A stretch of DNA of 64,000 nucleotides from a virus. Below the pieces are notes generated by a model. That model saw only the letters and a list, made by a program, of their open reading frames with translations, had not been told where the DNA came from and ran no database searches. The stretch lies in the IMG/VR virus record IMGVR_UViG_3300009130_000015. One strand, given 5' to 3'. The position numbers were made by a program, and so were the translations under genes. Below, one piece after another: positions 3,002 to 58,200 of this stretch. Numbering within the stretch: the first letter of the stretch is position 1; every line of letters begins with the position of its first letter.

Positions 3002-4534
3002 TTAATTGAGTCGTCTTTGCCCACGTTTGGTAAGTATGTCATTCAACATAACCTTTAAATCGGAAACATTGTTTACCCATATTACCTTCTCTGGATTTTT
3101 TACCTGACAAGCTCTAAGCTTTTTCTCATCTCGTGAATTAGGAACATTCCAATCTGGAATATATAAGTTCACATAGATTTTTGGTGCATTCCTACCATTA
3201 GGAAGCTTCATGATTCTTGCAACTCTACCAGTCCTTTGTGTATGTTGCGTAGGATTGGTAGAACGTGAACCATCTACTCCCAATTGTACGGTAGGATCGT
3301 CGAAACCTTGGTCTAACTTCTTAGCAGAACATAAAACAGATATTTCATTACGTTCGAACTGACTCATGTGCATGTCTGCAAGTGTATTTGAACCTACTTT
3401 TTTCAGTTTTTTCCATCTTATCGTCATAGCATCCAGGTCAATTTCGACATGACTCACTCCTTCTGTTTTCTCTAACTTTATCTTTCTACTTTGCAACCCT
3501 TTAACTGTCTTATATTCCTTACTTTGGTCAATAAGAATGTCTCTGGATTCCATAGATGAATGGTATAAAGCTGCTCTTTTCCCAAGTCTATTGGCGACTG
3601 CATCTGCAAACTCAGTTGCTTGTGAAAACGTGATAGTCTTGAGATTGAATTCTTCAATTAATTCAACAGCAATATCTATCTTACGCTCGGTAGTCTCTAA
3701 TAAGTTCTTTCTCTCACCGATAGCTTTGATAGCACGAGTAGCCCATTTAACTACTTCGTTTGTCTCATAACCATTAGCTTGAGCGTAGACTTTCGCATTC
3801 ACATTTTGCAAGCATGATAGCATTACATTAAAGTCACCAAATTTCGACATGAAATATCTAATTTCTTTGTTCAATGCTTTTTGTTTCTCTATCTCAGAAC
3901 GAGTTATTGGAACAGCAAGATTAAACTCTATAAAATCAGATATCCATCCTTTTTGGATAGCTTCAACTTGTGTGATAGTATCACATACAGGAGCATACTT
4001 CTTAAGTATAGCTTCTTTTCCATCTAATCTATCCATTGTAGCTGTCAGTCCTAATATCCAAGAATATCGGATACGATCGAATATTCTTGAAAACTTATCT
4101 GCAGCCATTAAATGAATCTCATCTATGACAAGTAAATCGCAATCTCTTCTAAAGTTTTCCCCGAGTGAAACCGTGTTTATTACATGAACTTCTGTGTTCT
4201 TGTTGAGTCCTAAAGAGGACATGGTTTTTTCCCATTGTTTTTTCAGAGGTGTAGTTGGTACTACAACGATCATTCTACCATCATATTTGAGGTTCTTTTT
4301 CAACGTCTCCATTTTAGCTTTAAGTATTAGTGGGAGAGTTGATTTACCAAATCCAGTGGCCGCTTCAAGCGTACCTCTGGCTTTAGTAACTTGTTTCCAA
4401 CGAACAACACTTCGTAGTTGCCGGACATATCGTTCTGTGTCCAGTTTATCTACTGGAATGTTAATCATTGTTTTCATTTGTATTTGGATTGAAGTGTTTG
4501 TTACCCTTGTGATAAGGGTGAGTTCTGTATTCAT
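3002..4534 (-). CDS. Superfamily II DEAD/DEAH-like helicase
   Basis: Motifs AATGFGKS (I), VVVPT (Ia), VIDEIH (II), GLTAT (III), KLDQGFD (V) and QRTGRVAR (VI). The true start may be the internal MKTMINIP. Confidence 0.9.
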   Translation of the reverse strand: MNTELTLITRVTNTSIQIQMKTMINIPVDKLDTERYVRQLRSVVRWKQVTKARGTLEAATGFGKSTLPLILKAKMETLKKNLKYDGRMIVVVPTTPLKKQWEKTMSSLGLNKNTEVHVINTVSLGENFRRDCDLLVIDEIHLMAADKFSRIFDRIRYSWILGLTATMDRLDGKEAILKKYAPVCDTITQVEAIQKGWISDFIEFNLAVPITRSEIEKQKALNKEIRYFMSKFGDFNVMLSCLQNVNAKVYAQANGYETNEVVKWATRAIKAIGERKNLLETTERKIDIAVELIEEFNLKTITFSQATEFADAVANRLGKRAALYHSSMESRDILIDQSKEYKTVKGLQSRKIKLEKTEGVSHVEIDLDAMTIRWKKLKKVGSNTLADMHMSQFERNEISVLCSAKKLDQGFDDPTVQLGVDGSRSTNPTQHTQRTGRVARIMKLPNGRNAPKIYVNLYIPDWNVPNSRDEKKLRACQVKNPEKVIWVNNVSDLKVMLNDILTKRGQRRLN

Positions 4535-4775
4535 CAGGTAATTTAAGACACGATAGTAGTATTTTTTGCATATCCGGTGGTAATTTTAGAAAATCTTTCG
4601 CTGAAATATCTTCAGGTGATTCTTCATTTGATTGCCACCATAGGATTAATGCATCGAGAGCTTCGCTAACTATATCGTAATCTTCAAAGGAAATGCTACC
4701 AAAATCAGTATGTCTCTCTATCAGTTTTTTCTTCATCATCTGATACTCTCTCACATATCTCATCTTCATAATCAT
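4461..4775 (-). CDS. Hypothetical protein
   Basis: 104-aa ORF in the operon, coupled to its neighbours. Confidence 0.55.
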   Translation of the reverse strand: MIMKMRYVREYQMMKKKLIERHTDFGSISFEDYDIVSEALDALILWWQSNEESPEDISAKDFLKLPPDMQKILLSCLKLPDEYRTHPYHKGNKHFNPNTNENND

Positions 4776-4939
4776 ACCTTTTGTAGTTTACCATCAAAAT
4801 ATTCAACAACGTATTTAGCAAACGATGTTAGAACTGGTTTTTCAAAGAACTCAAATTGTTTAAGTTCTTTCTTCACAGCTTCTTCATAAAGCTCTTTAAA
4901 CTTTTTGAAGTTAGCCATACTAAGATTCATATAGTCCAT
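4772..4939 (-). CDS. Small hypothetical protein (55 aa)
   Basis: Hand translation MDYMNLSMANFKKFKELYEEAVKKELKQFEFFEKPVLTSFAKYVVEYFDGKLQKV. Fills the gap between PolB and the next gene, and its stop overlaps the next ATG. Confidence 0.65.
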   Translation of the reverse strand: MDYMNLSMANFKKFKELYEEAVKKELKQFEFFEKPVLTSFAKYVVEYFDGKLQKV

Positions 4940-4949
4940 AGTGGAAAAA

Positions 4950-6791
4950 TTAGAACAATGATAGTTGCCGAGGCTCTATCAAGTCGATTAATTTTCTTGC
5001 TTCACGTATGTAATAGTTATAATTGATCTCGTAATCTTTTATCTTCAACTTCTTATAATCATTGAAAATAGTTACTCCGGAGTCTTTCATAACATGTTTC
5101 TTCTGAAGAGTTTGCTTGTCTACCTTAAATAGGTAACCTGCTGATAGATTGTTACTTGCGTAAAATCTGTTAGTCTTCTGAAGATTCTCACCATTACATA
5201 CTGCTTGGAATTTGGAACTCATCTTTTGCATCATACAAAAATCATATATGTTATCATGATTTTTTATATACTCCTCTACAGGTGTTCCATTGATAAAGTA
5301 TTCAGTTAATGCTTTTTTCACTACAGGTTTATCAAAACCTTTACCAAGTTTTACATCAGATAAGAAGAATCCTTTCTGTTTCATGACTGCATTTCCATCT
5401 TTGTCACGTAAAGGTTTCCCATCTTCATCTGCGTACCAGGCTATGTAAGAATTCACATCTCTCCTGATTACTTTGTAGTAATAAGCGTATTCCAACTCCA
5501 ATTCTGTGTGCTTTTCCCATGCTTTACAGATTTCATAATACTTTGGAAGGTCTTTTTTCTTCAATATTGTGGTGATACCATCTGTATTCAGAGAATCTAC
5601 TTTCATCTCTGCGTCAGTTAGTTGTTCACTTAACATTGAGAGCATAAGCTGTCCATTTAGGGTTATAGTCATTGCAGCCTGGGGATCATACAACCAAGAA
5701 TATTGGTTTATCAGATTTCCATAGGTTCCATTTAATGATAACTTGTAAGTATCAGCAATCAGCATGTTCTTTTCTTTCTTGGCTTTAACTCTCGTATCAC
5801 GAAGCCATTGGTATCTTGGTACAAATATTCCAGCATCTAAGTGTGCTGGACACGCTCCCAATTTAATAAGCAACGAAGGGTATAGTGATGATACATCAGC
5901 ATCGATGTAAATCTCATCATCTCCTCCAGCCATTATAATACCTGCCTTATCTTTAGAATGTATACCACCAGTACCATAAACATGCTTAACACCTCCGTAA
6001 ACTACAGAGTGTTTTAGAGCACCTTTAGTTTCAGTAATACGTTTATTCTTCAGAGTTGTGAGTAGTTCGTTAAACTGCTTAGACTTGAATTGTACTTTGT
6101 CACTAATACAATCAGCCAATTTCATGAACGGACGATGTGTTCTTTGATCTTTGAAGAACTCAGAACCTGTATCATCAGCGTAGAACTTTTTAAACAATTC
6201 TACCCCAGTATTTACATCATCTTTAGATAGACATTTGATGCCGTATTCCTGCTCAATCTTTATTCTTAGATTAAGCTTGTCTTTTGATAGATTAGTGATG
6301 TATTTTGTAACACCAACATCGTTGAAACAGTAATGTTTTACTAATTCAACTTCGTCTTCTCTAACTGGTTCATCGAAAGGTTTTGGTAAGTCTTGAATCT
6401 TTGGGTAATTCACATTTACAGCCAGTTCTTTTAAACTGACACGTTGCATTTTAGAGAATAACATTGACATGATATCGATTGATTCATAGATTTTAGGATA
6501 CCTCCATGCTTTGTAATCATCGTATTCTCCGTGGATTGCTAAGTGTGACATCTTAAACAAATCCGCATTCTTTCTTGGCCATTCAATAATGTAGTTCATG
6601 ATGATATTATCATAACCATTGTTGTTATATCCAATAAGGATATTACCAGTTATGAAGTCAATCATTTTAGATCTATCATCTTGCCATGGTGATATCTCAA
6701 AGTAGTACTTATTATCATTACCGTACTCTTCGAAGCATGCACAAAAGAAATTGGGGAATACCTCAATATCGTAAATAAGTTGTTTTTTCAT
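4950..6791 (-). CDS. polB: Family B DNA polymerase (crAss type)
   Basis: Exonuclease motifs YDIE, GYNNNGYD and YCFNDV. Polymerase motifs DADVSSLYPS, YKLSLNGTYG and SLNTDGI. Start moved to MKKQLIYD. Confidence 0.93.
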   Translation of the reverse strand: MKKQLIYDIEVFPNFFCACFEEYGNDNKYYFEISPWQDDRSKMIDFITGNILIGYNNNGYDNIIMNYIIEWPRKNADLFKMSHLAIHGEYDDYKAWRYPKIYESIDIMSMLFSKMQRVSLKELAVNVNYPKIQDLPKPFDEPVREDEVELVKHYCFNDVGVTKYITNLSKDKLNLRIKIEQEYGIKCLSKDDVNTGVELFKKFYADDTGSEFFKDQRTHRPFMKLADCISDKVQFKSKQFNELLTTLKNKRITETKGALKHSVVYGGVKHVYGTGGIHSKDKAGIIMAGGDDEIYIDADVSSLYPSLLIKLGACPAHLDAGIFVPRYQWLRDTRVKAKKEKNMLIADTYKLSLNGTYGNLINQYSWLYDPQAAMTITLNGQLMLSMLSEQLTDAEMKVDSLNTDGITTILKKKDLPKYYEICKAWEKHTELELEYAYYYKVIRRDVNSYIAWYADEDGKPLRDKDGNAVMKQKGFFLSDVKLGKGFDKPVVKKALTEYFINGTPVEEYIKNHDNIYDFCMMQKMSSKFQAVCNGENLQKTNRFYASNNLSAGYLFKVDKQTLQKKHVMKDSGVTIFNDYKKLKIKDYEINYNYYIREARKLIDLIEPRQLSLF

Positions 6792-12686: not shown

Positions 12687-13154
12687 TTATAGTTCATCAG
12701 GATGCATGTATAAATGCTCTGATATTAACTCTCGACCTTTACCTACAGGTGGTGGACCAAAGCGTATTTGACCGTTCATGTTAGCAATTACCCATGCTTC
12801 TTTACGATCAACCCAACGATTGTGAGATGTTAAGAAACCTTGATGTTTCCTGTCTTCAGTATACATTTGCATTGCTTCCTTGGATGTGTGTTCTTCGCAT
12901 TGCGACTGTAGTTCTTCACAGTCAGCGTGTCTATAACCAGGATAGACTCTGTTACCTATCTTGTTAGCTGCACATACAATGAACTCAGTTGTGAAACCAA
13001 GTGGTTCATACTTATGACTTATTCTCACGAACTCATCATAAGTAACACCTGTTCCATCAGAGTCTGGTTGTGATGGCGGACGTACATCCGACTCATCATC
13101 ATACCATTTAACTACTTTTAGTAGTGATTTAACATCTTTTAATATTCCCATCAC
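12687..13154 (-). CDS. Conserved phage hypothetical protein (GYRH...QGFLTS...DRKEAW...SEHLY pattern)
   Basis: The motif pattern resembles a recurrent phage family of unknown function (recalled, not searched). Confidence 0.7.
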   Translation of the reverse strand: MMGILKDVKSLLKVVKWYDDESDVRPPSQPDSDGTGVTYDEFVRISHKYEPLGFTTEFIVCAANKIGNRVYPGYRHADCEELQSQCEEHTSKEAMQMYTEDRKHQGFLTSHNRWVDRKEAWVIANMNGQIRFGPPPVGKGRELISEHLYMHPDEL

Positions 13155-16146: not shown

Positions 16147-16577
16147 ATAACAAAGATTTTGAAGAGTTAGGATTTAGTAATATAGCTGGGTGGAGTGCGC
16201 CTGGCATGCAAACTATCAACGAGTATAAGAAGGATAACTTCAAACTGACTCACTCAATGCCAGATGACTGTGTATTGATTTCCGTAGACGAACGCACTCA
16301 CCATATTGGTGTCTTTAAATCGAAGATTAGTTTAGAGACTAAATTGTCTGACATGCAGTATTTAGTTAGACCGAGTAATCAACTACATGTTGCGATTGAA
16401 CTTAAACCAGATCAAAGATTCCTTGCGGGAGACCTTTGGAGATACAAGTTCACCCACCATGGTAAGTTGAAGTTGGTAAGCAATATAAATGTGGAGTACT
16501 ATTGCGACACACTTGAAGAAGCACAAAAATCATACGATCCATTGGAGATTGTATCAGTTCAAATTAAAAAGATATGA
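16143..16577 (+). CDS. Hypothetical protein
   Basis: 144 aa, ATGA-coupled at both ends. Confidence 0.65.
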   Translation: MNNKDFEELGFSNIAGWSAPGMQTINEYKKDNFKLTHSMPDDCVLISVDERTHHIGVFKSKISLETKLSDMQYLVRPSNQLHVAIELKPDQRFLAGDLWRYKFTHHGKLKLVSNINVEYYCDTLEEAQKSYDPLEIVSVQIKKI

Positions 16578-17149
16578 TAAAGAAGATAACAGCAGTAATC
16601 GTAAAGGGTGTAAGAATTCCCATGGAGGAGTTTAACCCTGCGCTCCTTCTTGTAGCCGAGGGAGTAGAAGTGACATATAAACCGGAAGTGAATAATTTCA
16701 AATTCACGGTTTTGGATACGAGTAAGAAGCCAACTGTATTGGACATACTTGTAAAGGGACTTGAAAAATTTCCCAAAAATGATAATGAATACGATTGGAA
16801 TTTAGCAGCAGTAGGTAACATGAACAGAATACAACTTATAAAAGTAGTGGTAGATATACGCGATGATAAAGATTTATCTACACCATTGAAGATTAGAAAA
16901 CTATCGGAGTATAAATACAATGCACACGAACACGCAAGTGAAGAGGTAGATATCCCATTTCTTGAGACTATCGCACTGGATGCAATCAAAGACTTGAAGA
17001 TGGCAGTTGTTTCTTGTAAGATCGAAGGTTGCTCGGGTACTTATTACCCAAATCACCCAGCATATAAAGAAGGTGCAAACAACACCATGCAGCAGATATA
17101 CCTGAAGTCAATTCGTACGTGGATCCAAATTGGCCGACGAGAAAGTTGA
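16574..17149 (+). CDS. Hypothetical protein; its last ~50 codons may belong to the adjacent Tad1-like gene
   Basis: 191-aa ORF overlapping the Tad1-like frame. See findings. Confidence 0.55.
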   Translation: MIKKITAVIVKGVRIPMEEFNPALLLVAEGVEVTYKPEVNNFKFTVLDTSKKPTVLDILVKGLEKFPKNDNEYDWNLAAVGNMNRIQLIKVVVDIRDDKDLSTPLKIRKLSEYKYNAHEHASEEVDIPFLETIALDAIKDLKMAVVSCKIEGCSGTYYPNHPAYKEGANNTMQQIYLKSIRTWIQIGRRES

Positions 17150-17339
17150 GAAAAGAGAAGGTACTCTTCATGAGCATTTATTATCAGCAATGATCGCTGA
17201 TTTGAAGTTCAAACATCAATTGGTTCCATCGAAAGAACGAGCAGTAGCAATCACTAAACTCGAGGAAGCAAGAATGTGTATGCAAGAAAGACAAATTAAC
17301 AGAATTGAAGCGGGTACGCTTGGAACTTACAAAAAGTAA
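17130..17339 (+). CDS. tad1-like: Tad1-like (Acb2/Tad1 hairpin-type) immune-signal sponge, C-terminal part
   Basis: GTLHEHLL...PSKERAVAITKLEEARMCMQERQINRIEAGTLGTYKK matches the recalled Tad1 C-terminal pattern (G..x..LL...S[RK]E.A.A[LI]T..EEA.M.M..R...RIE...LGT..K). TTG start. The in-frame Tad1-like SQFVRGSK lies upstream of that start. Confidence 0.75.
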   Translation: MADEKVEKREGTLHEHLLSAMIADLKFKHQLVPSKERAVAITKLEEARMCMQERQINRIEAGTLGTYKK

Positions 17340-17347
17340 AAAGAATT

Positions 17348-18367
17348 ATGGAAGCAGTAAAATTAACACCTTACGTAGGTGTAAAGTCGATCAAAGCATC
17401 GGCACCAATGACAAAGAAAGAGTATTGTGAAATTCGCGGATGGGTTGTACCAGCTAACGAGGATTCAAATGAAATGGTAGTGTTGGTTGAATACCCACTT
17501 GAACCAGGAAAGATTGCTAATGTCCCAGGCTATGATGGATACGTTTCCATGTCTCCACTATCTGTGTTCGAGAAAGCATATGCTGAAGTTACTGGTGATA
17601 CAGAGGAGCCTGCATTATCTGAGATTATCGAAAGAAACTACAATGGTAAAGCCATCACTGATGGATACCACACTCGTGGGGAATTGTATGATTTCAGAAA
17701 GATGTACAATTGTGCGTTATTCAACGAATGGGCAGCTCAAGGGAAATACCAAGTTCACAAGTCTAAGAAACACCACGATGGTGAGGATTGTTTCGGTGGT
17801 GGATGGTTCATCGTAGTTGCAGTATTACCAACAGGACAGATCAGTAACCACTACAAGTTAGAGGATTGGAATCTTTTCAATGTGCCAACTGCCGAGAAAG
17901 CCATGTTCGAATTTGATGGACACACTCCAGAAGATGTATTAGCAAGACTTGAGTACTTAACTAAATCTAAACCTGTGAAATTGGATCCAAAAGAAAACAG
18001 TGCTCCACAAGAAGCACAACCAGTTGCGAAATCTTTAGGAAACACTGACGCAAATGGTGCGAAGAAGAATGTTAAAGATATCAAGTTCTGGGGTAATGGT
18101 GACACATTCAAGTTGATCTCAAAAGCATCTTCTGCAGCAGAAGGATGGATGAAGTCTACTAAAGCAATGGAAATCCCATTTGTAGGATGTGTAATTCAAG
18201 TAACCACTCAACAGGGAGATAATGTTTCTGAAGCTGTCACTTTTGTACCAGGGGTTAAAATCGTAGAGAAGATTGAGAATGAAATTGTGGTAGAGAGAAA
18301 GATAATATCAATACATGATAGAATTGAAGACATCCACAAGAAATTGGAAAAAGAGTATTTAGGTTAA
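17348..18367 (+). CDS. Three-domain fusion protein, candidate anti-defence: Y.G.K/SP..FE..Y domain, WDGH-type domain and EGWMKSTKAM domain
   Basis: aa 6-80: YVGVKSIKA.PMT...RGW...VEY...GY.S.SP..VFEKAY. aa 101-204: ITDGYHT..ELY...GWF...LPTGQIS.HY...FDGHT. aa 227-322: GNGDTFKLISKASS..EGWMKSTKAMEIP.VGCVIQVTTQQ. The domains are separated by charged or Pro-containing linkers. Confidence 0.7.
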   Translation: MEAVKLTPYVGVKSIKASAPMTKKEYCEIRGWVVPANEDSNEMVVLVEYPLEPGKIANVPGYDGYVSMSPLSVFEKAYAEVTGDTEEPALSEIIERNYNGKAITDGYHTRGELYDFRKMYNCALFNEWAAQGKYQVHKSKKHHDGEDCFGGGWFIVVAVLPTGQISNHYKLEDWNLFNVPTAEKAMFEFDGHTPEDVLARLEYLTKSKPVKLDPKENSAPQEAQPVAKSLGNTDANGAKKNVKDIKFWGNGDTFKLISKASSAAEGWMKSTKAMEIPFVGCVIQVTTQQGDNVSEAVTFVPGVKIVEKIENEIVVERKIISIHDRIEDIHKKLEKEYLG

Positions 18368-18376
18368 TAAATAATG

Positions 18377-18404
18377 GAGGAGTTCTAAAATGAGCTCCTC
18401 TTTA
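18377..18404 (+). terminator. Intrinsic terminator closing the 15.1-18.4 kb unit
   Basis: GAGGAGTTC-TAAAAT-GAGCTCCTC-TTTT. Confidence 0.75.
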
Positions 18405-18494
18405 CTTTCATGTCATGATAAACAAAGTAGCAATCATATCACTTGTAGTAATCGTTATTATTCGTATTTTAACGAACTGAAAAAATTCTAACCA

Positions 18495-20714: not shown

Positions 20715-21095
20715 ATGAAGATCGTTAAAAAAGTAAAGGATCGGGAAGACTTGTATTTGACAGTCTTTCGTCATCTTAATACATCAGGGCAGATACGAGG
20801 TATTGATATCAAGACATACACATTAATGTGCATGGAGGCGATGGAAAATGGAAACCTACGTATATCAAAAACATTACGTGATACGTTACAGGAGAAGTTG
20901 CAAATGTCAACGCAATCTCTAACAAATTCAATAACCAGGCTTAGAGAGAACTCGGTTCTAACTGGACAACGTGGAGTATATGTTCTTAAACCTGAAGTAC
21001 TTTGGGATGGAGATGAAGAGTCTCGCAAGAAGTTCTTATCGGAAGATGGTAGTTTCGAAATATTCATTGAAACAATTATCGAGGGAAATAAATAA
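20715..21095 (+). CDS. RepL-like winged-helix DNA-binding protein
   Basis: LQMSTQSLTNSITRLRENSVLTGQRGVYVLKPEVLW: HTH plus wing ending in a P..lW motif. Confidence 0.6.
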   Translation: MKIVKKVKDREDLYLTVFRHLNTSGQIRGIDIKTYTLMCMEAMENGNLRISKTLRDTLQEKLQMSTQSLTNSITRLRENSVLTGQRGVYVLKPEVLWDGDEESRKKFLSEDGSFEIFIETIIEGNK

Positions 21096-46279: not shown

Positions 46280-49200
46280 ATGCCAATTCACGGTGATCAA
46301 TCTTTAGGAGAATCTCAAGGTATAAACGCAGCCCAAGAAGTTAACGAATTCGAATCTGGAGTTAAGGAATCATTAGATGCTACTCCCCAGGAAGATTTCT
46401 CGGTAGACTTTGATACTAAGGAGATTACAGATGCTCAATTTAAGGAGGCTGAATCCCATGGAGTTAGAGATATAGACTTACTTGATACTTCCACTGATGT
46501 TAATCAGGAGATTGAAGCAAACCAAGAATGGTATGAATCTGCATATCGTGCGGTGGAAGGTGGTATTGCTAAAGGTACAATGACTTTCCTTGAGAATGTT
46601 GGGTACTTAGCTGACATTCCTCAATGGTTTGGATACACTAATTCTTTCGAAGAAGGGTACACTAACATGTTATCCGAATGGGCATCTGAGAAAAAGAAAG
46701 AGTACGACGAATACAATCCAATTTATGGTGATAGTGCGTGGGCACAATCAATGAGAGGTCTTCAAGGACTTGTTGATTCTACAGTTGGTTTTGCTGGTAT
46801 TGGTGCTGGTGCTGGTCAAGTTATTGGTAGAGGTACTGCATTGTTAAACTCTATGGTTAAAGCAGGTCATATTACTGAAGCTGCTATTGCTCGCATTGGT
46901 ACTGCCGCTGCAACTAACTATGCTGAATCTACAATGATGGCTGCAGAGTTACATGAGAATGTAATGAATGATGCGTTGAGAAATGGATTAGATAATGCAG
47001 AAGCGTTACGTATTGCAGACAGAGAGTCTAAAGATTTCATCAGACAGAACAAGATAAACATTGCAACTGACATGTTCACATTAAGATCTATGGCTAAAGG
47101 TCAGGGAATTCTTAGTGGGGCAATGGATAAATCGAAGCGGGAGATTCTCAAAGCCGGGGTAATGGATGCGGCAGGTGAAGCTTTTGAAGAAGTATCTGCA
47201 GGTTTCTTACAGAAAGAAAATGAAAGAGATGGTTCATTAGAGATCGGTAGTATTGTTGAAGATGATTCATCTTACATTGGTAGAGCTGCCGAATATGCAA
47301 CTTCAGAAGAAGGAATCACTGAAGGAATCATGGGTGCTATTGGAGGTCCATTCCAACACATGACAGTGAAGGCATTCAATAAAGGAATCGAAGCAGGTAA
47401 GAAGAAGTTTGGATTGATCGATCCTGTAAATGACCCAGGTGAGTTTACTGAGGAGAGACCTGAGTTTACTGAAACTCCATCTGAACCTGTTGGTAGAAAA
47501 CCATTAGATCCTGTTGAAAGATATGTTAAGATTAACGCTAACACATCTAAGGAGGAAGCGGAGAAGTATGTAACGGAAGAGGACTGGGAGAACTATAGGA
47601 AAGAAGTTCAGGAATGGGCAAGAGGTTCTATGAGTGATGCTGAATACGAGAAGTCTAAAGAAAAGCACGAGAAAGAGGTTGAGCTTTATGAGCAAAGAAA
47701 ATCTGCTCACGAACTTGAGAAGAAAAAATACGAGGAGTACGTCTACCAGAAAAAAATGGGAGGTCGTGACCAGGCTAAGAAAGACGTGGAAGAATTCTTG
47801 AAGAATGACCACGAACTTAGAAAGAAATATAACAAAGCCGTATTGGATGGTGATCAAGCTGCAATTGCAGATATTGAGAATCAAAGGTTTGAAGGATTAT
47901 TCTTGAGGTATGCCCAAAGAGGTATGACTGAAGGATTAGAGGAACAACTTAATGAGATTAGAGACAACTCTGAGTCTACTGATGAGCAACGTAAGTTTGC
48001 TGAGAAGCACCTTAAGAAAATGGATGAGTACAAAGCTCAATACATGAAGGAGTTCAACAAGCACGGTAGACAGAAGGGTGAAGAGTTATTTAGATTAAGA
48101 AGTAGAGTTGAGAGCACTAAGGAAGCTCTATCTGATATCGATAAACAAGTCGATGAGGCAGGAATGAAGCTTGCTCAGGAAATGAAAGATGTTGAAGGTA
48201 AGATGGTTAATCCACTTCAGACTGAGAGAATGTCTTTGAATTCACTTAAAGGTGCACTCGAACATATCGAGAATAAACTTTCATTAAATGATAATGCGGT
48301 TATTGAATCGGAGTTATCAAAGAAGAAAGCAGATATAGAAAAAAGAATTGCTGAGATTGATAAGGAGTTTACAACTGGTAAACTTTCTGATTCTGAAATC
48401 AAAGCACTTGATGGTTATGAAGAGTTTGAAGCTCAGTCTAAGAAGAAAGCAGATGCGTGGTTGACTTACCTTGGATACAAGAAGTCATACGATTACCAAT
48501 CTTCACCCGCTTTTGAGAAAGACTTACAGAAGAAAAACTACGAGTACTTAAATGATCAGATTGTTAATAACACATTTAACGATCAGGATGTTGCTGTTAA
48601 CATGGCAATGATTACTCATTTAAACTTGAGCAATAAGCAGAAGAAGGAAATCTTAAAAGAGTTAGATAAAGTCGCTTCCAATATTGAAAACGAAGAGATT
48701 GAAACTGCTGCCGAGTATGAAGATTTACAGAGAAGAAAGAAGCAGTATGACGCTATGTATGAGGAGGTTACTCAATCATCACTTGACGCTTTAAGTGAGG
48801 TTATTCGTCGTCAGAAGAATAAGTTCACTAAGGAAGATGAAGTAATTGAGGCTGCGAGAAGAAACTATCATTCTGCTCAACAGAAAGTTCATACAACATT
48901 AGATCCTAAGTTCCAAAATGCTAACGTTGAAAGTTTACGTCAGCAATACCAAGAGGCTACAGATAAAGCGTGGGAAGAATATCAGGCTTCTAAGAAAGCT
49001 AAAGAACAAGCAATTAAGGACAACACGCAGAGGATTCATGATCTTAAGAAACAAATGGAAGCTAACAAGCAGCAAAGAAAGCGTATTGTTAGTTTACGTA
49101 ACACTGTAGATTCAAGACTTGAGGCTAATGACAAGTTCATTGGTAACAATGCAATGGAGTTTGAAGCAGATAGATACTTAAACAAGCTGAATGAAACTTT

Positions 49201-52200
49201 AAGTAATGAAACAACTCCGCCTCCATCACCAATGTCACAACCAGAACCATCGGCTCCTACCAGAGGAATTGGTGCGGTTGTAGGTGGTACTTCTAAAAAG
49301 AAGACACCACCATCTACTGTAGTTCAAGATGTTGAAGAGAACAAAGGTGAGAATACAGTACAGCAAGTTGAATCTAAACCAAAGTCAAAAAACACAAGAG
49401 GTGTTAGAGCACCTCACCCATACATTGATAAGTTAAATCAAGCAAGACAACCTAAAGGTCAAGACGGTGTTACTCCTCCACCATTGACAGAAGCAGATGC
49501 TCCAAGAGATCAAGGTCCAGCACCAACATTTCAGGAAGCTCCATCTCCTATGTCATTCGATGGTGTTACTCCTCCAGATTATTCTGAAGCAGATAGTCCT
49601 ACACCACCTTTACCCGAGAATGCAACACCTGAGCAACTTCAGGCTGCAGCTCAAGCAATGCGTGATATGAAAGATGAAGATTCTGAAGCATTAGCTTCAT
49701 CTTTATCTCACATGTCAAGTGCTGAAGTGTCTACTAAGGGTAAAGAGTTAGGTGAGATAGTTCCTACTGATTTTGATAACTCGGACGTAATCCCTCCAGT
49801 ATCTCCAGCTTTTAATGAACATGAGAGTAGGTTAAATTCTGAATGGGAATGGTCTTTCTCATACCAATCTACATCAGATGGTATTGGCGATGAGAATGAT
49901 AGCGGTTTAGTAGATTGGCTTGAGACTACAACGGATTTAGATAAGCGAGGTTATACGGTTAGATACGAGATTGACAAAGGTGATTTGTCTTTTGATTTCA
50001 AAGGATCCAAAGCAGCTTTAACTAAATACTTAAATGGTGAGACGTTAACTGATGCTGAACTTGCTGAACTTCCAATAAGAACTGTTGTGTACAAAGCCGA
50101 TGGTACTAAACTTATCCATGGTGGAAAAGAAGTATATGGGTGGTTGAAGCGTTCAAGTTACAACTTCATTGATAACAATGGTGAGAAGGGTGAAAGCTTA
50201 CTTAAAGCTCGTAGAGATATAGTGAACATTGCAAAAGACGGAGGTTACTTTGAAAGTAAAATACGTAAAGTAGGTAGTGGTAAATTAAAGTCTGAACCAA
50301 CGAGAAGAGAAGATCCTCGTCAGTTTTTAGATAAGGTTAAGCTCTTAGTATCAGATGGTCCTACTCTTATTGACCAAGATAAATCAATAGATGATGATTT
50401 TGGATCTGTTGGTAATAGAGGTTTTGTATTCTTAAAAACAGTGGATGCAAATGGTAGACCGTTCCCACTTAAAATGAATTCAAGAAGATTGGATCCAGAT
50501 GAAGTTAAAACAATACTTAATGTTCTTGTAAACTACTCAAGAGATGATGATCATAATAGCCCTGCTATAACTGAACATGTTTCAGGTCTTACTAATGGTG
50601 AGCTTATGAGCTTGTTGGTGTACGAAGGTAAAGCTTCATTGCTAAACGAATACCCTTTAAACGCTGACTTGAAAGCAGGTACATTGACTTTTGGTAAAAA
50701 GACTATACCGTTAAGTAAGGTTGAAGAGAATGCTCAGGAGGTTTCTGAATACCTTGCAACAATGTGGAGAACTACAAACGTTAGAATGCTCAACTCTAAA
50801 ATGGATAAGACATTCGGTAAAGACTTCACTTGGTTTGGGCAGGACATATCTGTTAGTGATATGAACTACAATGATTTCTTATTCAATGACGAAGCGTTGT
50901 CAACTAATGCGTCTTTCCCTAATGGTAGATTGTTCATCAATCCTCATGTTATAACTAATAAAGCTGAAGAGTGGAATAAGGTTATGCCAAAGAAGATGTA
51001 CAATGAAAAGGATGTTGCTGTTGTTAGAAGGGAGGCCGCTAAACTTGGATACGAAGCTGAGATGGTTGGTGAGTTATATCAATTAACACACCCTACTGAA
51101 AATAAGACAATCAAGACAAAGATGGTTGTTAAATCGTTCTTAAACCAAAAAGCCAAAGAGAAGGGTATAACTTTAGACTTCTCTCAAGGGAAGGTTGATA
51201 CTAAGGAAGTTACACCTCCAATTGTAGATGAGAAATCATCTACTACGATATTCGATCAAGGTCCAGATCCATTGGATTCTGTATTTGGAGAAGAAAAACC
51301 AGACTGGAGAGATCTTGGTGGAGATCCTGATTCCTCTCAAAGCCCGGGAGTTCAAACGAACGTAAACATGGATATGTTCAGAAGTAACTCTAATAAAGCT
51401 ACTGGTAAAGATTCTGCAGATGAGTCTAATAAAGACGGAAAAACCAAGAGGGTAAGAAAAAGAAAAAAGGACGGTGGAAATAAACCTGACAATTTTGATA
51501 CTAAAGGGCCTGATGCTCCTAAGTATTCTGAAATCACAATTGCTCGTCGACAAGTTAATGTAGAGAAGGAAATAAAAACTCTTAGAAAGATGCTTCCAAA
51601 TGTTCCTGTTAATATAATCAACGGTCTTATAAATGTACCAAGAGGTGGTGTTGCTGAAGGTAAGTTCTATAATGGTGTTGTAAGTATCTCAGACATGGGT
51701 AACGAAGGTGTTGCTTTCCATGAAGGTTTCCATGCGGTACTTGATGGTTACTTGAGTTATGAAGAACGCAAGGAGTTATTTAATGAGGCGAGAAATAGAT
51801 TTGGTAAGAACGAAAGTGATTTACAAGTTGAAGAGTTATTAGCTGAAGAATTCAGAGAGTACATGTTGAGCAGAGGTGAGCTTAAAGTCCCATCTATGTT
51901 TAAGAAACTATATAACATGTTAATGGATATTGTTGATTTGTTTAGAAGTAACAAGTCCAATAAAGTATTCTCCAGAATTAGAAGAGGTAGATTTGATTAC
52001 ACTCCTAACTTCTCAAGATCGAAGCAGGTTCTTTATAGTGAATTGAACGGAGTTCCATCTCAAGCTATGGTGAGAGATGCGGTAAGTACAATTGCATATA
52101 GAGTTGTTTCTTTCTCAGGTGTTAGATCAATGGATGATACAGCAAAAGCATATGACAATTTAGAGAGTGTATTCAATGATGTATACAACTCATTGTTAGA

Positions 52201-55200
52201 TGACGCAGATAGAGCTGAAGAAGCTGGACAGGATGAGATTGTTGAAAACATTGATATCATCACACATGAAGATTTCGACAACTGGGATAAGATTGTTCAA
52301 CTTACAATGGATGAGTTGAGTGCTTATGATTTAACAGAACGTAAAGATGATACAGATGTATCAGAAGAGAACGAAGAAATCTCAGGTGAGTTAAACATCA
52401 AACCTGCTTTATTGTATTCAGGTAAAGATAATGCTTCCAATAACACTAAGTTGATGGTTGCAATGTTGAGAGAACCTGGTGCGAAATCACAGTTCTTTGG
52501 CCCAGGCTTTGAGAAACTGGCAAACTTTGCAACGTCATGGAGACTGCTTGAAGACAACCTTGCTGGTATTGTTACCACTCAATCTAAAACAGAGATGGAA
52601 GGTATGCTTGAAGCCCTTGAAGGTTTAGCTGCTAAACATCCTGAGTTCAATGAGTTGTTATCTCAACTTAAAGCTGATGAGAGTGTTGTACCTCAATACA
52701 AGAAGACTCAATTCTATAAAGCATTCTCTAAACAATCTGTTTTATACAACAATGCAATCGTTACTATTAGTGGTAAGGATTACACTTGGAAGATTGGTAA
52801 TGCAGATGGTCAGAGTCATGCTAAGTTATTGAGAGCTGAATGGAATGAGGATTTCAAGAATCAGTTTACATATGGTGACCAGGTTGTAAAGAAGAAAGCA
52901 TTAAGAAATACTTTAGATAGATTTAAGAAGTTGAGACAACATACTACGAACGATATATCTGCTAAACAGAGATTGGATCCTCGTAGTTATAGAATACTTT
53001 CGGATATCTTTTCTGATTTAGGTATGGATATCTCCCCTGAGTCTTTCAAGTTGTTTGTTTCATCACAAAAAGGTAGAACTGAACAGCAGAAATTCTATAC
53101 GGCACTTGAGAAATCTATTACTCCTACGTTGTTGAATACTCCTAAGAATCCAAGTACACCACTTGAAGCAATGCTTAATGATGGTTATAAATATGATGGT
53201 GAGAATAACTTCATTACAGATTATTCTCAATTCAATCAACTTGCTTTAAACGAAGGGTTTACAAAGAAGGAAACATTAGAGAACATGGTAATGGGACCTG
53301 ATGGAAACTTATACTGGACTAAATCTCTTAACAACAGTATTACTAAAACTGTTTCTTTATGGAAGCAAGATCCTTCTGAGATGAATGGTTTATGGCAATC
53401 TCAATACCACAAGAAGTCGAGATGGCTTAATAGATTCATGGGATCTGATTTAGATGAGAGTGTTTATTCAGAAGGTGATCTTACTAAGAAAACAAGAGAG
53501 AGGCTTGAGCAATTTAGTGTTGAGGTATTCTTATCCAATCGTGTAGATGATGGTGAAGATACTGGTACAAGCTATACTGACCTGAATAAAATCGATGCAC
53601 CCATTGATTCTATAAATAGGACTCTAAATGGTGTTAAGAATAAATCAGGATTAGGATCTGTATTCTCTCCATTAACCCTTGCAGATAAGAGTTCTTTCTA
53701 CATGTTCTCAGGAATTCCTGTAGAAAAATTTAACATATCTAAGAACGGATATGGTAATGCTACTAATGTTATGCTTGAGTATTTCTTAGCTGAAGCTGAA
53801 AGAATTGCTGTTAACGTTGATAATGATGTAAACGTTGATTACTATGATGGTGCTTCCAAAAAGATGTTCTGGTTCCCAGAGTTATCTATTGGAACCCCTC
53901 TTGCTAAGAAGTTAAATATGTATACCAAGGATGGTCGTGTTAAGCTGGATAGTAATGAAGTGATGAATGCTGTTAAAGAACACATCTCAGATTCTATCAT
54001 AAAAAGAACTGCAGAGTTCGGACAGGAGATGAGAGAAAGAGGTATCATTGTTAAAAACGACAAAGGTGTTGAGATATTTAATGGTATTGATTCTGGTATC
54101 ATGAATTATTATGAAAACAATACAGTTGTAGAAAGTAAGATGACTCCAATTGATGAATTACTTACTGATTATGTTGTTAACTCTATGATATCAAACATTG
54201 AGTTTACTATGTTATTTGCAGGTGATCCGGCATTCTATAAGGATTTATCTAAGAGAACACCATCTACAATTGCAACAGGTGATGACTTAATGCATGTAGA
54301 AGGACAACCTAAAACATTTAATGTTGCTGTAGTTGGTGATATCAGTCATGACTCCAGTTTATATAAAGATTATTTAGCTGCGTTTGAAAAAGCAGGTGTT
54401 AAAAATCCAAAGACTGTACTTAAATCTTATTTAGGTATGGACTTAGCGGATGCTCAGGCATACATTACTCCTGAGAGATTTAAGTCTCTTATGATAATGT
54501 CAGGTAAATGGGAACCAAAACACGATGCTGTATTTGAAAGATTACAAAATGGAGAGGATGTAAACCCAGAGGACCTTTTGGTTATGCAACCATTAAAAGG
54601 TCAACACCATGAGCTACGTTCAGGTATCGATCAAATAAAAGTTCCTACATACTTAAAGTATTCTCAAGCTGTACTATGGGATAGTTTAGTTAAGGGTACT
54701 AAGAATGAGAAGGTTCTTAAACAAATGAGAGAGAACGAAGTCGATGAACTTGTTTTCAAATCAGGTATCAAGGTCGGAGCAATGGATGTTTCAGATATCG
54801 AATCTGTATACAATGGTGAAGGTAGTTTCACTCCATTTACATTAACAAATGCCAACTGGAAGTTACAACAAGATTTACCAGCCAAATATGAGAAGAAAGA
54901 AAAAGCATTACTTGGATCTCAAGTTCGTAAGAACATTAAAGCAAACATTCAAGATAGAGCATTCCTTGTTGGAGGTAAAGAGATTGATGGTTCTAAGTTA
55001 GCGGAAATGATTGACGATGTTGAAGTTGAATTATCTGACTTAGGTAAGAAAGAGTTCAATAAGAAGTACGGAGTTGTAGATGGTAAGATTACAAACATCG
55101 AACCTATCTATCGTCACCTTGAGGATAAATTCAAGAAAGACAGAGTGGATAACAACGTACTTGGACAGCTTGAAGCTAAAGTTGATCTTGATTTGATTTT

Positions 55201-58200
55201 CCAATACAAGGAAAAGATTGAACAAGAGTTATTTGCAGAGTTGAATAAAGCGACAGTAAAGCTTACATCTCCTGGTGGATCATTCATCCAGATTTCTGGA
55301 GCAGGATTCACAGGACTTAAGAAGTTCGATGCGGGACAGATTAATAGAAACGGTATTATTCCACTTCAGGATATTGATTCATTCCAAGGTCCTCGAAAAG
55401 GGAAGGATGGAACAATTGCTGCCGATGTTATGATTCCATTTAAAGCTGTTAGAAATATTCCAGGTTGGGAGAAGATGTCTTCTGATCAACTTAAAGATGC
55501 ATTGGGCGATACTGTGCAAAACTTAATAGGGTATCGTATTCCTAACCAGGGTATGTCATCTATTGATTTACTGAATGTAGTTGGGATTCTCCCTCCTTCA
55601 GCCGGGGATAGTATGGTCGTTTATGATGAAATCACTGGTAAAACAGGTTCCGATTTCGACATTGATAAGATGTATGTCATGATGCACCATACGGCTTGGA
55701 ATAAGAATACTAAGAAGCTTGAGAGAATTACGGATGAAAACTTGAATCATTTCCCAGGCGTTAAGAAGGACTACGCATCTTTCCAGAAGAAAGCATTAGA
55801 GAATAAGAGAATGGAATTATGGGGAGCTGTACTTAGTTCACCGGATACATTCATTGATTTAGTAACTCCTTTAGATTCAGAGTGGTTTAAGAATGATGCA
55901 TACTACGTGAGTCTTTTAGGTAATCCAGAAGATCATGATGAGTTCTTGGAGTTCTCAGGTGTACCTTCTATGGAGTCATACATTGAGCAAAGCAACACTT
56001 CCAAATATGAGATGGCTGCTAAGTTCTATAAGAATAAGAAAGGTTCAAGTTTAGAATTCGCTTCTCCACTTACTCAGTTATTGATTAAAGAACAGAACAC
56101 TGCAGGTAATGCAGGGGTTGGTCAAACAGCAAACCATTTAGCTCACCATATTTTATTACAACAAGTTGGTGAGGCAATGACGTTAAACCAAAATGGAGAT
56201 AAGATTACTGAAGTTATTTCTGCATGGTTGAATGCATACGTTGATAATGCGAAGGAACCATACATCTCTTTAATCAACAATAACACGTTTACTGCTAACA
56301 CGGTATTCTATATGTTGAGACAAGGTTATGATCCTAAGTTTGTTAACAGATTGATGTCTCAACCAATCATTAAAGAGTATGTTGGAAATCATTTCAATAG
56401 TGAGAGTAAGTTAGTTAAGCCTACTTGGAGAAAACAGAAGTATACTTCTTATAGTTTTAAGGTTGACGATACTGAGAACATTAGCTACAAGGAAAATAAA
56501 GCAAGTGTTATTATTAAACCTAAGCATGGTCAGACTGGTATTGTTAATGCTTTTGACAAGACGATTCTTGATAGAGGTTATAGTATCTCTAAGAAGCCAA
56601 TGCATTTAAACTTGAGTGCTTTAAACGAATACACAGTTGAAGATCTTGAGAAGTCATTGTTATCTGAGAATGAGAACGACCAAATTGGATTGTTATTGAT
56701 GTTTGAAGGTATTCGTCAGAATGCTAAACAATTCAATGATATGGTAAGAGCTTCTAAGTTTGATACAGATGGAGCCGGTTCAAGTAATGTTGAGAACTTC
56801 ACAACTCGTATGCTGGTTGACAAAGTTATCAATGAGAATAAGAATGCTCAGGCATACGAGAAGATAATCAAGGATACATTTGTTGGTGGTATGATGAAGA
56901 ATTCACATAGAACTGCAAATGATATCTTCGGAGATTTATTTATGTCAGGATCCAAAGCAGCGGTTAATAACCTTACAGTTATCAATTCGATGATTGGAGG
57001 AGATGGTACTAACCTGGATGTGAATAGTAAGATTGTTAAAGACTTCTATTCATACGTTTATTCGGGAGCAATGGGTGATTCTAATATCACTAACATGTTC
57101 TATGGTAATAAATCTATGGCACACAAGGTTAGAATGTTCAAAGACAAGTACCCATCTAACAAGTTATTATCTAAACTTCGTACTATACTTAATACTAAGG
57201 AAGGTCCATCATTTGTTACTTTCCCATCTTCTAAGAAGAAGGATAGAAGTGAGATCGATGACCTTTGGTTATCTTGGGAAGAGTTACTTACTGATGAGAC
57301 TTCTTTTACAAATAAAGCTGGAGAAACTTACACTACAAAACAGTTCGCTGAAGATTTAGTTAAGTATGCATTTGCAGCATCTGGGTTTAACAAGAATATA
57401 AACTCATTCTTCGACTTGATTCCTCACACATACATGAGAGGTGACTTAGGAAGCGGTCCTTCTTTCAATGGTATTATGAATTCTATCAAGAAGGATCTTA
57501 ATAAACATGCAATGCAATCTTCTTTCATCGATCAGTTCTTCAGACACAATTGGATGAATAAAGATATAGTTCCTTCTTATTCAAGTGAGAACAACGATAT
57601 GTTTAGAACAATTTCTTCAAAGTATCCTAAGACCCATGGTTTTAGAATCGATGCTGATAAAACACCTTCTTCAATGATGGTTAAAAACATCGAAGGTGAT
57701 TTGGATCCTAAACAATATGTTAGATTGAACTTCAAGAAAGGAGCTAAGAATCTTTACAAGTATGCAGGTAGAAAAGGAGATGACCTTTATTTCGAAAGAG
57801 TTACACCTCTTGGAATGTCTGAGAAAGGGAACGTAATCAAAGAGTATTCGTACGATAATCAAGTTGGAGAGAGTCATGTTAATACTTCACATTCATTTGA
57901 TACTTCTAAGATGAAGTCTGAGTTGAAGTTAGATACTCAAGCTGTTTATTATGGTGTTAATTTTGGTGTTGCAAATACTGTTAATATTGGTGAGGAAACT
58001 TCGGAAGGTTTCAAGGTGAGAGATACTCAATACCTTGATAATGAATTCGTTGTTGAAGAGTACACGAATAACAGAGGTGAAGCCAAATATAAAGTCGTAT
58101 CTTACACAAACCGAGGAACAGAGAATGAGAAATCAAGAACTGTAGTACGTGAATTTGATACTAAAGAAGAAGCATTAGCATCCGCAAAAGGAGTAGTTGG

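Follow-up and report, generated by a model that had tools for sequence, protein, structure and literature searches.

What kind of protein is encoded between positions 17348 and 18367 of IMG/VR virus record IMGVR_UViG_3300009130_000015, and which of its parts act on bacterial immune signalling? Whether Thoeris, CBASS, Pycsar and related systems can stop an infection depends on the sponges and signal-cleaving enzymes of the phage, and no more than seven families of sponge are listed in a review of October 2026. The window, meaning the whole stretch of 64,000 nucleotides that was analysed, holds at this point a single open reading frame (ORF) of 339 amino acids on the + strand, whose product an earlier note on the DNA had divided into three domains and put forward as a candidate multi-specificity protein against immune signalling. 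We consider it probable that the gene encodes a modular counter-defence protein, in which Lockin-based activity against Thoeris is combined with a second, uncharacterised anti-signalling module. Judged by sequence, the protein ends in a Lockin sponge domain whose ligand site is intact, has a canonical WDGH domain in the middle and begins with a member of the RyR Tad N-domain family.

The fusion protein and its Lockin domain

The gene and the parts of its product, hereafter domain 1 (D1), WDGH and Lockin, are laid out as follows.

17348..18367, + strand: D1–WDGH–Lockin fusion gene (P0001), 339 amino acids, ATG start, stop codon included
17354..17629, + strand: domain 1, assigned to the RyR Tad N-terminal domain family, residues 3–94 (envelope of a hidden Markov model, HMM), conserved core 6–81; no Pfam model
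17591..17647, + strand: linker 1, residues 82–100, acidic, read from the sequence as VTGDTEEPALSEIIERNYNG; overlaps the weakly conserved end of the D1 envelope
17639..17983, + strand: domain 2, WDGH (PF25311), residues 98–212 (envelope of our own HMM), 102–202 in Pfam
17954..18028, + strand: linker 2, residues 203–227, rich in Lys and Pro, read from the sequence as YLTKSKPVKLDPKENSAPQEAQPVAKS
18029..18364, + strand: domain 3, predicted Lockin sponge domain, residues 228–339, of which 228–303 align to LockinA and 304–339 form a C-terminal tail

The start, strand and length of the ORF are as the earlier note gave them, and the domain bounds that it drew are almost exact when set against the D1 core, the Pfam match to WDGH and the aligned part of Lockin. 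The linkers are charged or Pro-containing, as it had described, and in the AlphaFold2 (AF2) models of the domains the predicted local distance difference test (pLDDT) drops to 66–69 across residues 81–98, in the region of linker 1, and to 54–71 at the end of WDGH, in the region of linker 2. All of the motifs that it quoted are found in the protein: DGYHT at residues 105–109, HHDG at 142–145, NHY at 167–169 and FDGH at 189–192, together with the domain 3 motif GNGDTFKLISKASS..EGWMKSTKAM. The fusion is real and no assembly artefact, because the same protein, copied letter for letter, is called on 7 contigs of independent assemblies (ENA, Logan and JGI). Its precomputed Pfam labels are PF25311 WDGH and PF26760 Lockin, the latter given to the domain 3 region in the newer Pfam version used by the public collection. 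A second protein with the D1, WDGH and Lockin modules on one chain was not found in the sequence searches made here.

Domain 3 had been taken for a conserved phage domain of no known function that might be a sponge; the idea of a sponge is borne out, and the family proves to be a known one: a phmmer sequence search of PDB aligns residues 228–303 to Lockin (9p8l_A, E 1.1e-18, ~54% identity). Lockin proteins are inhibitors of type I Thoeris, type II Thoeris or both, and they sequester the Thoeris signals 3' cyclic ADP-ribose (3'cADPR) and histidine–ADP-ribose (His-ADPR); LockinA, which binds and releases 3'cADPR, is a hexamer with six ligands in inter-protomer pockets (Tal et al., bioRxiv 10.1101/2025.07.12.664507). 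LockinA contacts 3'cADPR through K35, K45, S46, T47, K48 and Q59, and mutation of K45 or K48 abolishes or weakens its activity (bioRxiv 10.1101/2025.07.12.664507). All six contacts are kept in the fusion, as K259, K269, S270, T271, K272 and Q284, a correspondence read from the 9p8l_A alignment against the residue roles in Tal et al.

Relatives of the Lockin domain are encoded on 447 stretches in IMG/VR. Among the 80 nearest of these loci, 64 are stand-alone ORFs of 92–123 amino acids and 5 are fusions of D1 with Lockin, and none of the 80 has WDGH beside Lockin in the same ORF. Identity to the query is 59–77% in 79 of the 80 loci and 52% in the remaining one; the Lockin part of another protein, P0058, is 71% identical to that of the 339-residue protein. 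The N-terminal extensions of the longer IMG/VR Lockin ORFs have no Pfam match, and some of them may be over-called starts. No INPHARED record covers the Lockin part, which fits the remark of Tal et al. (bioRxiv 10.1101/2025.07.12.664507) that INPHARED has no Lockin among its complete phage genomes.

The WDGH domain and its fusion partners

The middle domain had been recognised in the earlier note as WDGH in an FDGH variant, and PF25311 indeed matches residues 102–202 at 115.5 bits (cut-off 27, E 1.4e-33). An alignment of 116 WDGH sequences has 23 invariant and ~40 near-invariant columns, and all 23 invariant ones are present here, with the naming motif reading F189-D-G-H192, as in most close relatives. 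The conserved residues are D105, H108, R117, N121, N126, W128, H137, K138, S139, H142, D144, E146, C148, N167, H168, Y169, W174, D190, H192, T193 and R200. The invariant and near-invariant columns together include five histidines (H108, H137, H142, H168 and H192), two of them invariant, and three tryptophans.

The AF2 model of WDGH, at pLDDT 91.1, consists of a long helix, a short strand (domain residues 41–45), two longer strands and a C-terminal helix. Foldseek finds no match to this fold in PDB at E<=0.001, a PDB profile search returns nothing, the best VIA hit among 48,161 chains has a Z of 4.0, and a fold search of the ESM Atlas yields other WDGH clusters or noise only. Modelled as a homodimer, WDGH scores 0.66, as opposed to 0.01 for the best control; a score of 0.66 is reached by 20 of 30 proteins solved as one-chain pairs and by 1 of 23 solved as single chains, counts that are only rough because our own alignment was supplied. 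The predicted interface draws on two helices, the long one and the C-terminal one, and on residues next to each of the His-Thr motifs (H108-T109 and H192-T193), and it contains the conserved residues H108, E112, Y114, R117, N121, N126 and W128.

Several known counter-defence proteins were considered as identities for WDGH. Acb1-type 2H phosphoesterases and Apyc1-type metallo-β-lactamase (MBL) enzymes have deposited structures, and WDGH shares a fold with neither by Foldseek or VIA. TadIV-1 (T4 Vs.3), a helical dimer restricted to Straboviridae, was rejected on its description only, for WDGH and for D1 alike. Bes1 and Bes2 were likewise set aside on description, Bes1 being RuvC-like and Bes2 modelled with low confidence, as opposed to the pLDDT of 91 for WDGH. 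Acb5, compared by phage host only, occurs mainly in Streptomyces and Mycobacterium phages, whereas WDGH occurs mainly in Listeria, Bacillus, Salmonella, Streptococcus and Lactococcus phages. Literature searches under the name WDGH, PF25311 or PF26760 turned up nothing relevant, and reviews of October and November 2026 list no WDGH family.

WDGH proteins are abundant. At 90% identity, 5,153 clusters of short proteins of 67–212 amino acids, mostly stand-alone and 110–140 residues long, match at E<=1e-10, and another 1,209 clusters are of longer proteins of 186–593 amino acids, the two length windows overlapping and sharing some proteins. The 120 best-scoring matches are 65–79% identical to the query and all derive from metagenomes. 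INPHARED holds 193 WDGH records, including Listeria phage P100 gp128, Bacillus phage Tsamsa, Salmonella phages epsilon34 (gp06), L and ST64T, Lactococcus phage 1706 and streptococcal prophages.

The fusions of WDGH are what would tie it to immune signalling. Reading the sequences of the matches, we identified D1+WDGH+Tad2 (P0007 and P0013, with P0002 having a weak Tad2-like tail only), Lockin+WDGH (P0003 and P0004), Sequestin+WDGH+Tad2 (P0029), WDGH+Sequestin (P0107) and D1+WDGH (P0005); D1 occurs in 8 of 119 WDGH matches, the query counted. The automatic labels of ESM Atlas clusters extend this list by two clusters of Tad2+WDGH, of 246 and 56 members, and one of Tad3+WDGH, of 117. The earlier note had reasoned that, in a fusion of anti-immune-signalling modules, the unknown domains become suspects by association. 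Sequestin was itself discovered by reasoning on fusions, and this reasoning is borne out again here, since the domain 3 that the note could not name turned out to be Lockin. The fusion pattern of WDGH mirrors the one that led to Sequestin. For WDGH the argument is supported by its recurrent fusion to Tad2, Tad3, Sequestin and Lockin, whereas the neighbourhoods of stand-alone WDGH genes give it no support. On this evidence WDGH is a good candidate for a new phage route to disarm bacterial immune signalling. It is also a concrete and cheap target, being abundant, highly conserved, free of any fold match and present in culturable model phages (P100, epsilon34, L, Tsamsa and 1706).

Some stand-alone and extended WDGH proteins have settings of their own. 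In Bacillus phage Nate (gp134–gp135, L006:2839-4039), the gene for a stand-alone WDGH protein runs into the start of a gene of the NADAR family, NADAR being a domain linked to NAD and ADP-ribose. In P22-like phages (epsilon34 gp06, L005:2309-2869; phage L; ST64T orf-186), a 186-residue WDGH protein is the product of a moron that lies within the late structural operon, with the coat gene on one side and head-completion gene 4 on the other. Two long proteins, P0051 (411 amino acids) and P0102 (538 amino acids), carry WDGH amid long Pro/Ala/Gln-rich repeats ('YTTPPAAQQEPVA...'), with DUF551 in one of them, a context resembling that of polyvalent proteins.

Domain 1, the proposed mechanism and its rivals

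A Pfam scan of residues 1–100 gives nothing even at E 10. An exhaustive phmmer search finds relatives of D1 in 707 representative proteins at E<=1e-3, with near-invariant residues G11, K13, M21, Y26, R30, G31, W32, P35, E38, V47, E48, Y49, N58, G64, Y65, S67, S69, P70, F74 and Y78. A D1 profile built from 146 sequences aligns to residues 2–71 of Pectobacterium phage CB1 gp68 (hhalign 97.2%, E 3e-11, 70 aligned columns), and by this profile comparison D1 is a homologue of the N-terminal domain through which RyR Tad dimerises. gp68 is RyR Tad, in which a C-terminal RyR-like domain sponges glycocyclic ADP-ribose (gcADPR) and the N-terminal domain crystallises as a strand-swapped dimer (Fedorova et al., bioRxiv 10.64898/2026.06.04.730250). 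The D1 fold has been described once before, without a function.

The AF2 model of D1 has a pLDDT of 90.6, and its extended N-terminal segment, residues 1–15 at pLDDT 93, has no partner within the chain; the segment is compatible with a strand swap. Against PDB, D1 has no profile match and no Foldseek match at E<=0.001, and its best VIA Z is 3.4. The nearest known fold, DUF1653 (PDB 3be3, Z 3.4; template-modelling (TM) scores of 0.50/0.68 in the Atlas), is too weak a match to use.

Of the two ideas about D1 in the earlier note, the fusion to DUF2829/Tad2 proves to be frequent and the tentative label Acb4 does not stand. Partners among the 149 best full-length D1 proteins are Sequestin (PF21825) in 48, Tad2 (PF11195) in 44, Acb4 (PF13876) in 18 and the Acb2/Tad1 hairpin in 4, counts that may overlap as one protein may hold several partner domains; ~10 of the 149 are of stand-alone size (73–98 amino acids). 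The D1 clusters of the ESM Atlas show similar partners, including triple fusions, and some are of 66–93 amino acids. PF13876 does not match D1 at E 10, nor does Acb4 come up by PDB profile, Foldseek or VIA. In coliphage N4, EPNV4_gp49 (L003:1989-2468) joins a canonical D1 to Tad2, and Acb4 (PF13876) is encoded by a gene of its own just before it, gp48; Escherichia phage Huey similarly has D1+Tad2 in CDS0064 (L001:2501-2998) and Acb4 as a separate gene. CDS0064 is annotated 'anti-CRISPR', presumably because AcrIIA7 is a relative of DUF2829/Tad2. N4 gp49 offers an accessible representative of D1.

From these parts a mechanism can be proposed. Early in infection, the Lockin parts would form a hexameric ring that traps TIR-made Thoeris signals (3'cADPR and perhaps His-ADPR) in its inter-protomer pockets, so that the ThsA effector would never be switched on. 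D1 would pair by strand swap as in RyR Tad and WDGH as a symmetric dimer; together with the Lockin hexamer, such pairing would make the whole particle a trimer of dimers. D1 may serve chiefly as an oligomerising scaffold that raises the local valency of the sponge, with a ligand of its own possible. WDGH would bring a second activity on immune signalling by binding or cleaving a nucleotide-derived signal, at a site at or beside the dimer interface where the His-Thr motifs H108-T109 and H192-T193, predicted to adjoin the two-fold axis, lie next to a cluster of His, Asp, Lys and Ser. We put cleavage slightly ahead of binding because of the five conserved histidines, the His/Asp cluster and the two His-Thr motifs near the two-fold axis. 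That the 339-residue protein is multi-specific, as the earlier note proposed, is an inference. A broader proposal is plausible, if not quite probable: WDGH would be a new, large counter-defence family, a symmetric homodimer of unseen fold that binds or cleaves a nucleotide-derived signal at its His-Thr/His-Asp site, and canonical D1, the form with the RGW, E and N residues that N4 gp49 has, could be a small sponge too, beyond any part it has in dimerisation.

A number of points weigh against this picture. The oligomeric state, ligand binding and phage rescue that it assigns to the 339-residue protein are all inferred. Most Lockins are stand-alone, at ~100 amino acids, and an N-terminal cargo of 227 residues could hinder assembly of the ring. 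Most WDGH proteins have no known sponge fused to them, and a published structure-guided sponge screen did not report WDGH. Around stand-alone WDGH genes in phages Nate and P100 and on three long contigs, Pfam recognises no anti-defence neighbour, the NADAR gene of Nate apart; the genes around them are small, early and anonymous, and ThyX or a helicase is encoded close by. Finally, residues 1–86 of gp68 alone have no activity against type I Thoeris (bioRxiv 10.64898/2026.06.04.730250).

The last two points, along with the part that the gp68 domain takes in dimerisation and the conserved helical interface through which WDGH is predicted to dimerise, are what one would expect if Lockin were the sole anti-defence module and D1 and WDGH served only for oligomerisation or solubility, as inert scaffolds that have neither a ligand nor a target of their own. 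We regard this as unlikely. A mere scaffold would not be kept alone, yet both domains are common as stand-alone proteins, D1 in the Atlas clusters of 66–93 residues and WDGH in its more than 5,000 clusters of 67–212 residues, and both conserve many polar and aromatic residues beyond the needs of packing. Moreover, gp68 lacks several near-invariant D1 residues (R30-G31-W32, E48, N58 and Y78), so that the negative result for its N-domain need not hold for canonical D1.

Less likely still, in our view, is that WDGH is a protein-binding inhibitor like Tad3–Tad8, which would block ThsB or ThsA, for example, directly and without a small molecule. The 117-member Atlas cluster does join WDGH to Tad3 (PF25185), a ThsB-binding inhibitor, and the very high identity among the 120 best WDGH matches would suit a conserved protein target. 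Lockin, a true sponge, is however similarly conserved among its nearest loci, the other known partners of WDGH are mostly small-molecule sponges, and a ligand-binding or catalytic site is what the conserved cluster of His, Asp, Lys, Ser and Cys resembles more closely. That WDGH has nothing to do with immune signalling, being for example an accessory enzyme of nucleotide metabolism or DNA whose sponge fusions reflect a general shuffling of small early phage genes, is very improbable: the ThyX and helicase genes near stand-alone copies, the moron position in P22-like phages and the sponge-free proteins with DUF551 or long Pro/Ala-rich repeats would fit it, but four independent anti-Thoeris families (Tad2, Tad3, Sequestin and Lockin) recur as partners, D1 is a fifth that is itself tied to those families, and the fusion reasoning that discovered Sequestin would have predicted Lockin here. 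We therefore keep to a modular protein with a Lockin sponge and a second anti-signalling module, for which WDGH is the candidate.

Genomic setting and comparison with known systems

The source phage is crAss-like (Crassvirales), its terminase, portal and major head protein matching crAss PHROGs. The major head protein is ~43% identical to those of crAss-like phages of Bacteroides, with weaker matches including Flavobacterium and Cellulophaga phages. Near 14 kb the genes switch from the − to the + strand, and the sign of the GC skew flips there too; the fusion gene is found upstream of the structural genes, among the small genes that make up the first + strand block. With it, Lockin is recorded from a crAss-like phage, on a contig of considerable length (up to ~88 kb). 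Two features flank the gene.

17130..17339, + strand: upstream ORF of 69 amino acids resembling the C-terminal helical hairpin of Tad1/Acb2; context, outside the fusion
18376..18411, + strand: terminator-like hairpin (10-pair stem, 6-nucleotide loop) with T-rich tail, 9 nucleotides past the stop of the fusion gene

The earlier note had placed the fusion gene 8 nucleotides downstream of a Tad1-like gene and last before a terminator. The spacing is exact, with 8 nucleotides between the stop codon of the 69-residue ORF (TAA, 17337–17339) and the ATG, and the terminator is borne out by the hairpin proper at 18376–18401 and the T-rich tail after it. The label Tad1-like is only partly right, because the ORF matches the Tad1 hairpin alone. 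It covers Tad1 residues ~61–123 in PDB chains 8kbh, 8kbg and 7uav (E 6e-4) and positions 68–131 of 131 in phrog_2428, and its match to PF24729 (E 6.7e-4) is under the cut-off. Of the full Tad1 architecture, an N-terminal sheet domain followed by a C-terminal hairpin, it has the hairpin half only, and it may be a sponge pared down to the hairpin, not a full Tad1. An ORF of 191 amino acids (16574–17149) overlaps its start; as the missing N-terminal half of Tad1 this ORF was rejected, having no similarity to Tad1.

A Pfam scan of the neighbours of the fusion gene in the window gives a weak RepL match alone, in an ORF of 126 amino acids at 20715–21095 (+ strand; PF05732, E 2.9e-5, above the cut-off). 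An ORF of 155 amino acids at 12687–13154 (− strand) is labelled PF26092 'T4_Y16D' in the precomputed annotation of the public collection and has no match in our own Pfam scan. In the late region, a single ORF of 3,989 amino acids at 46280–58249 (+ strand) may be a giant virion RNA polymerase or an ejected protein, either of which is typical of crAss-like phages.

A contig from a related phage (ENA ERZ4119665), which carries P0002, has the same gene order downstream as far as the terminase. There, D1+WDGH+Tad2-like (273 amino acids, 4250–5071) is followed by a stand-alone Tad2 (112 amino acids, 5071–5409). As Tad2-like and Tad2 sequences occupy this place ahead of the shared downstream order, the locus behaves as a swap site for anti-signalling modules, with Lockin in the window phage and Tad2 in its relative.

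Lockin and sponge fusions have both been published, and it is against these that the protein is best seen. It shares with LockinA the sequence of residues 228–303, the six 3'cADPR contacts and a phage origin. As opposed to the stand-alone LockinA type of ~100 amino acids, its Lockin is the C-terminal third of 339 residues, is found in a crAss-like phage and has a longer C-terminal tail (residues 304–339); a known sponge is thereby joined covalently to two modules without proven activity. In RyR Tad, as here, the homologous N-terminal domain is the partner of a gcADPR sponge, but gp68 pairs it with an RyR-repeat sponge and lacks the near-invariant RGW, E48 and N58, whereas the fusion pairs it with WDGH and Lockin. 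N4 EPNV4_gp49 and Huey CDS0064 have a canonical D1, with all conserved residues, N-terminal to a sponge, as in the fusion; their partner is Tad2, with neither WDGH nor Lockin. Listeria P100 gp128 and epsilon34 gp06 share the WDGH domain, stand-alone or with other extensions, and have no known function. Fusions of two sponges are known in Acb4–Tad2 (Pasteurella phage Pm86), Acb4–Sequestin (Pseudomonas phage Ab09 gp59) and Tad2–Sequestin. Similar to these, the 339-residue protein joins independent anti-signalling modules on one polypeptide by short linkers and is encoded in an early or accessory region. Unlike them, it has three modules, one of them of a family with proven activity, and it would combine mixed symmetries, a hexamer with dimers, where the known fusions combine tetramer with tetramer.

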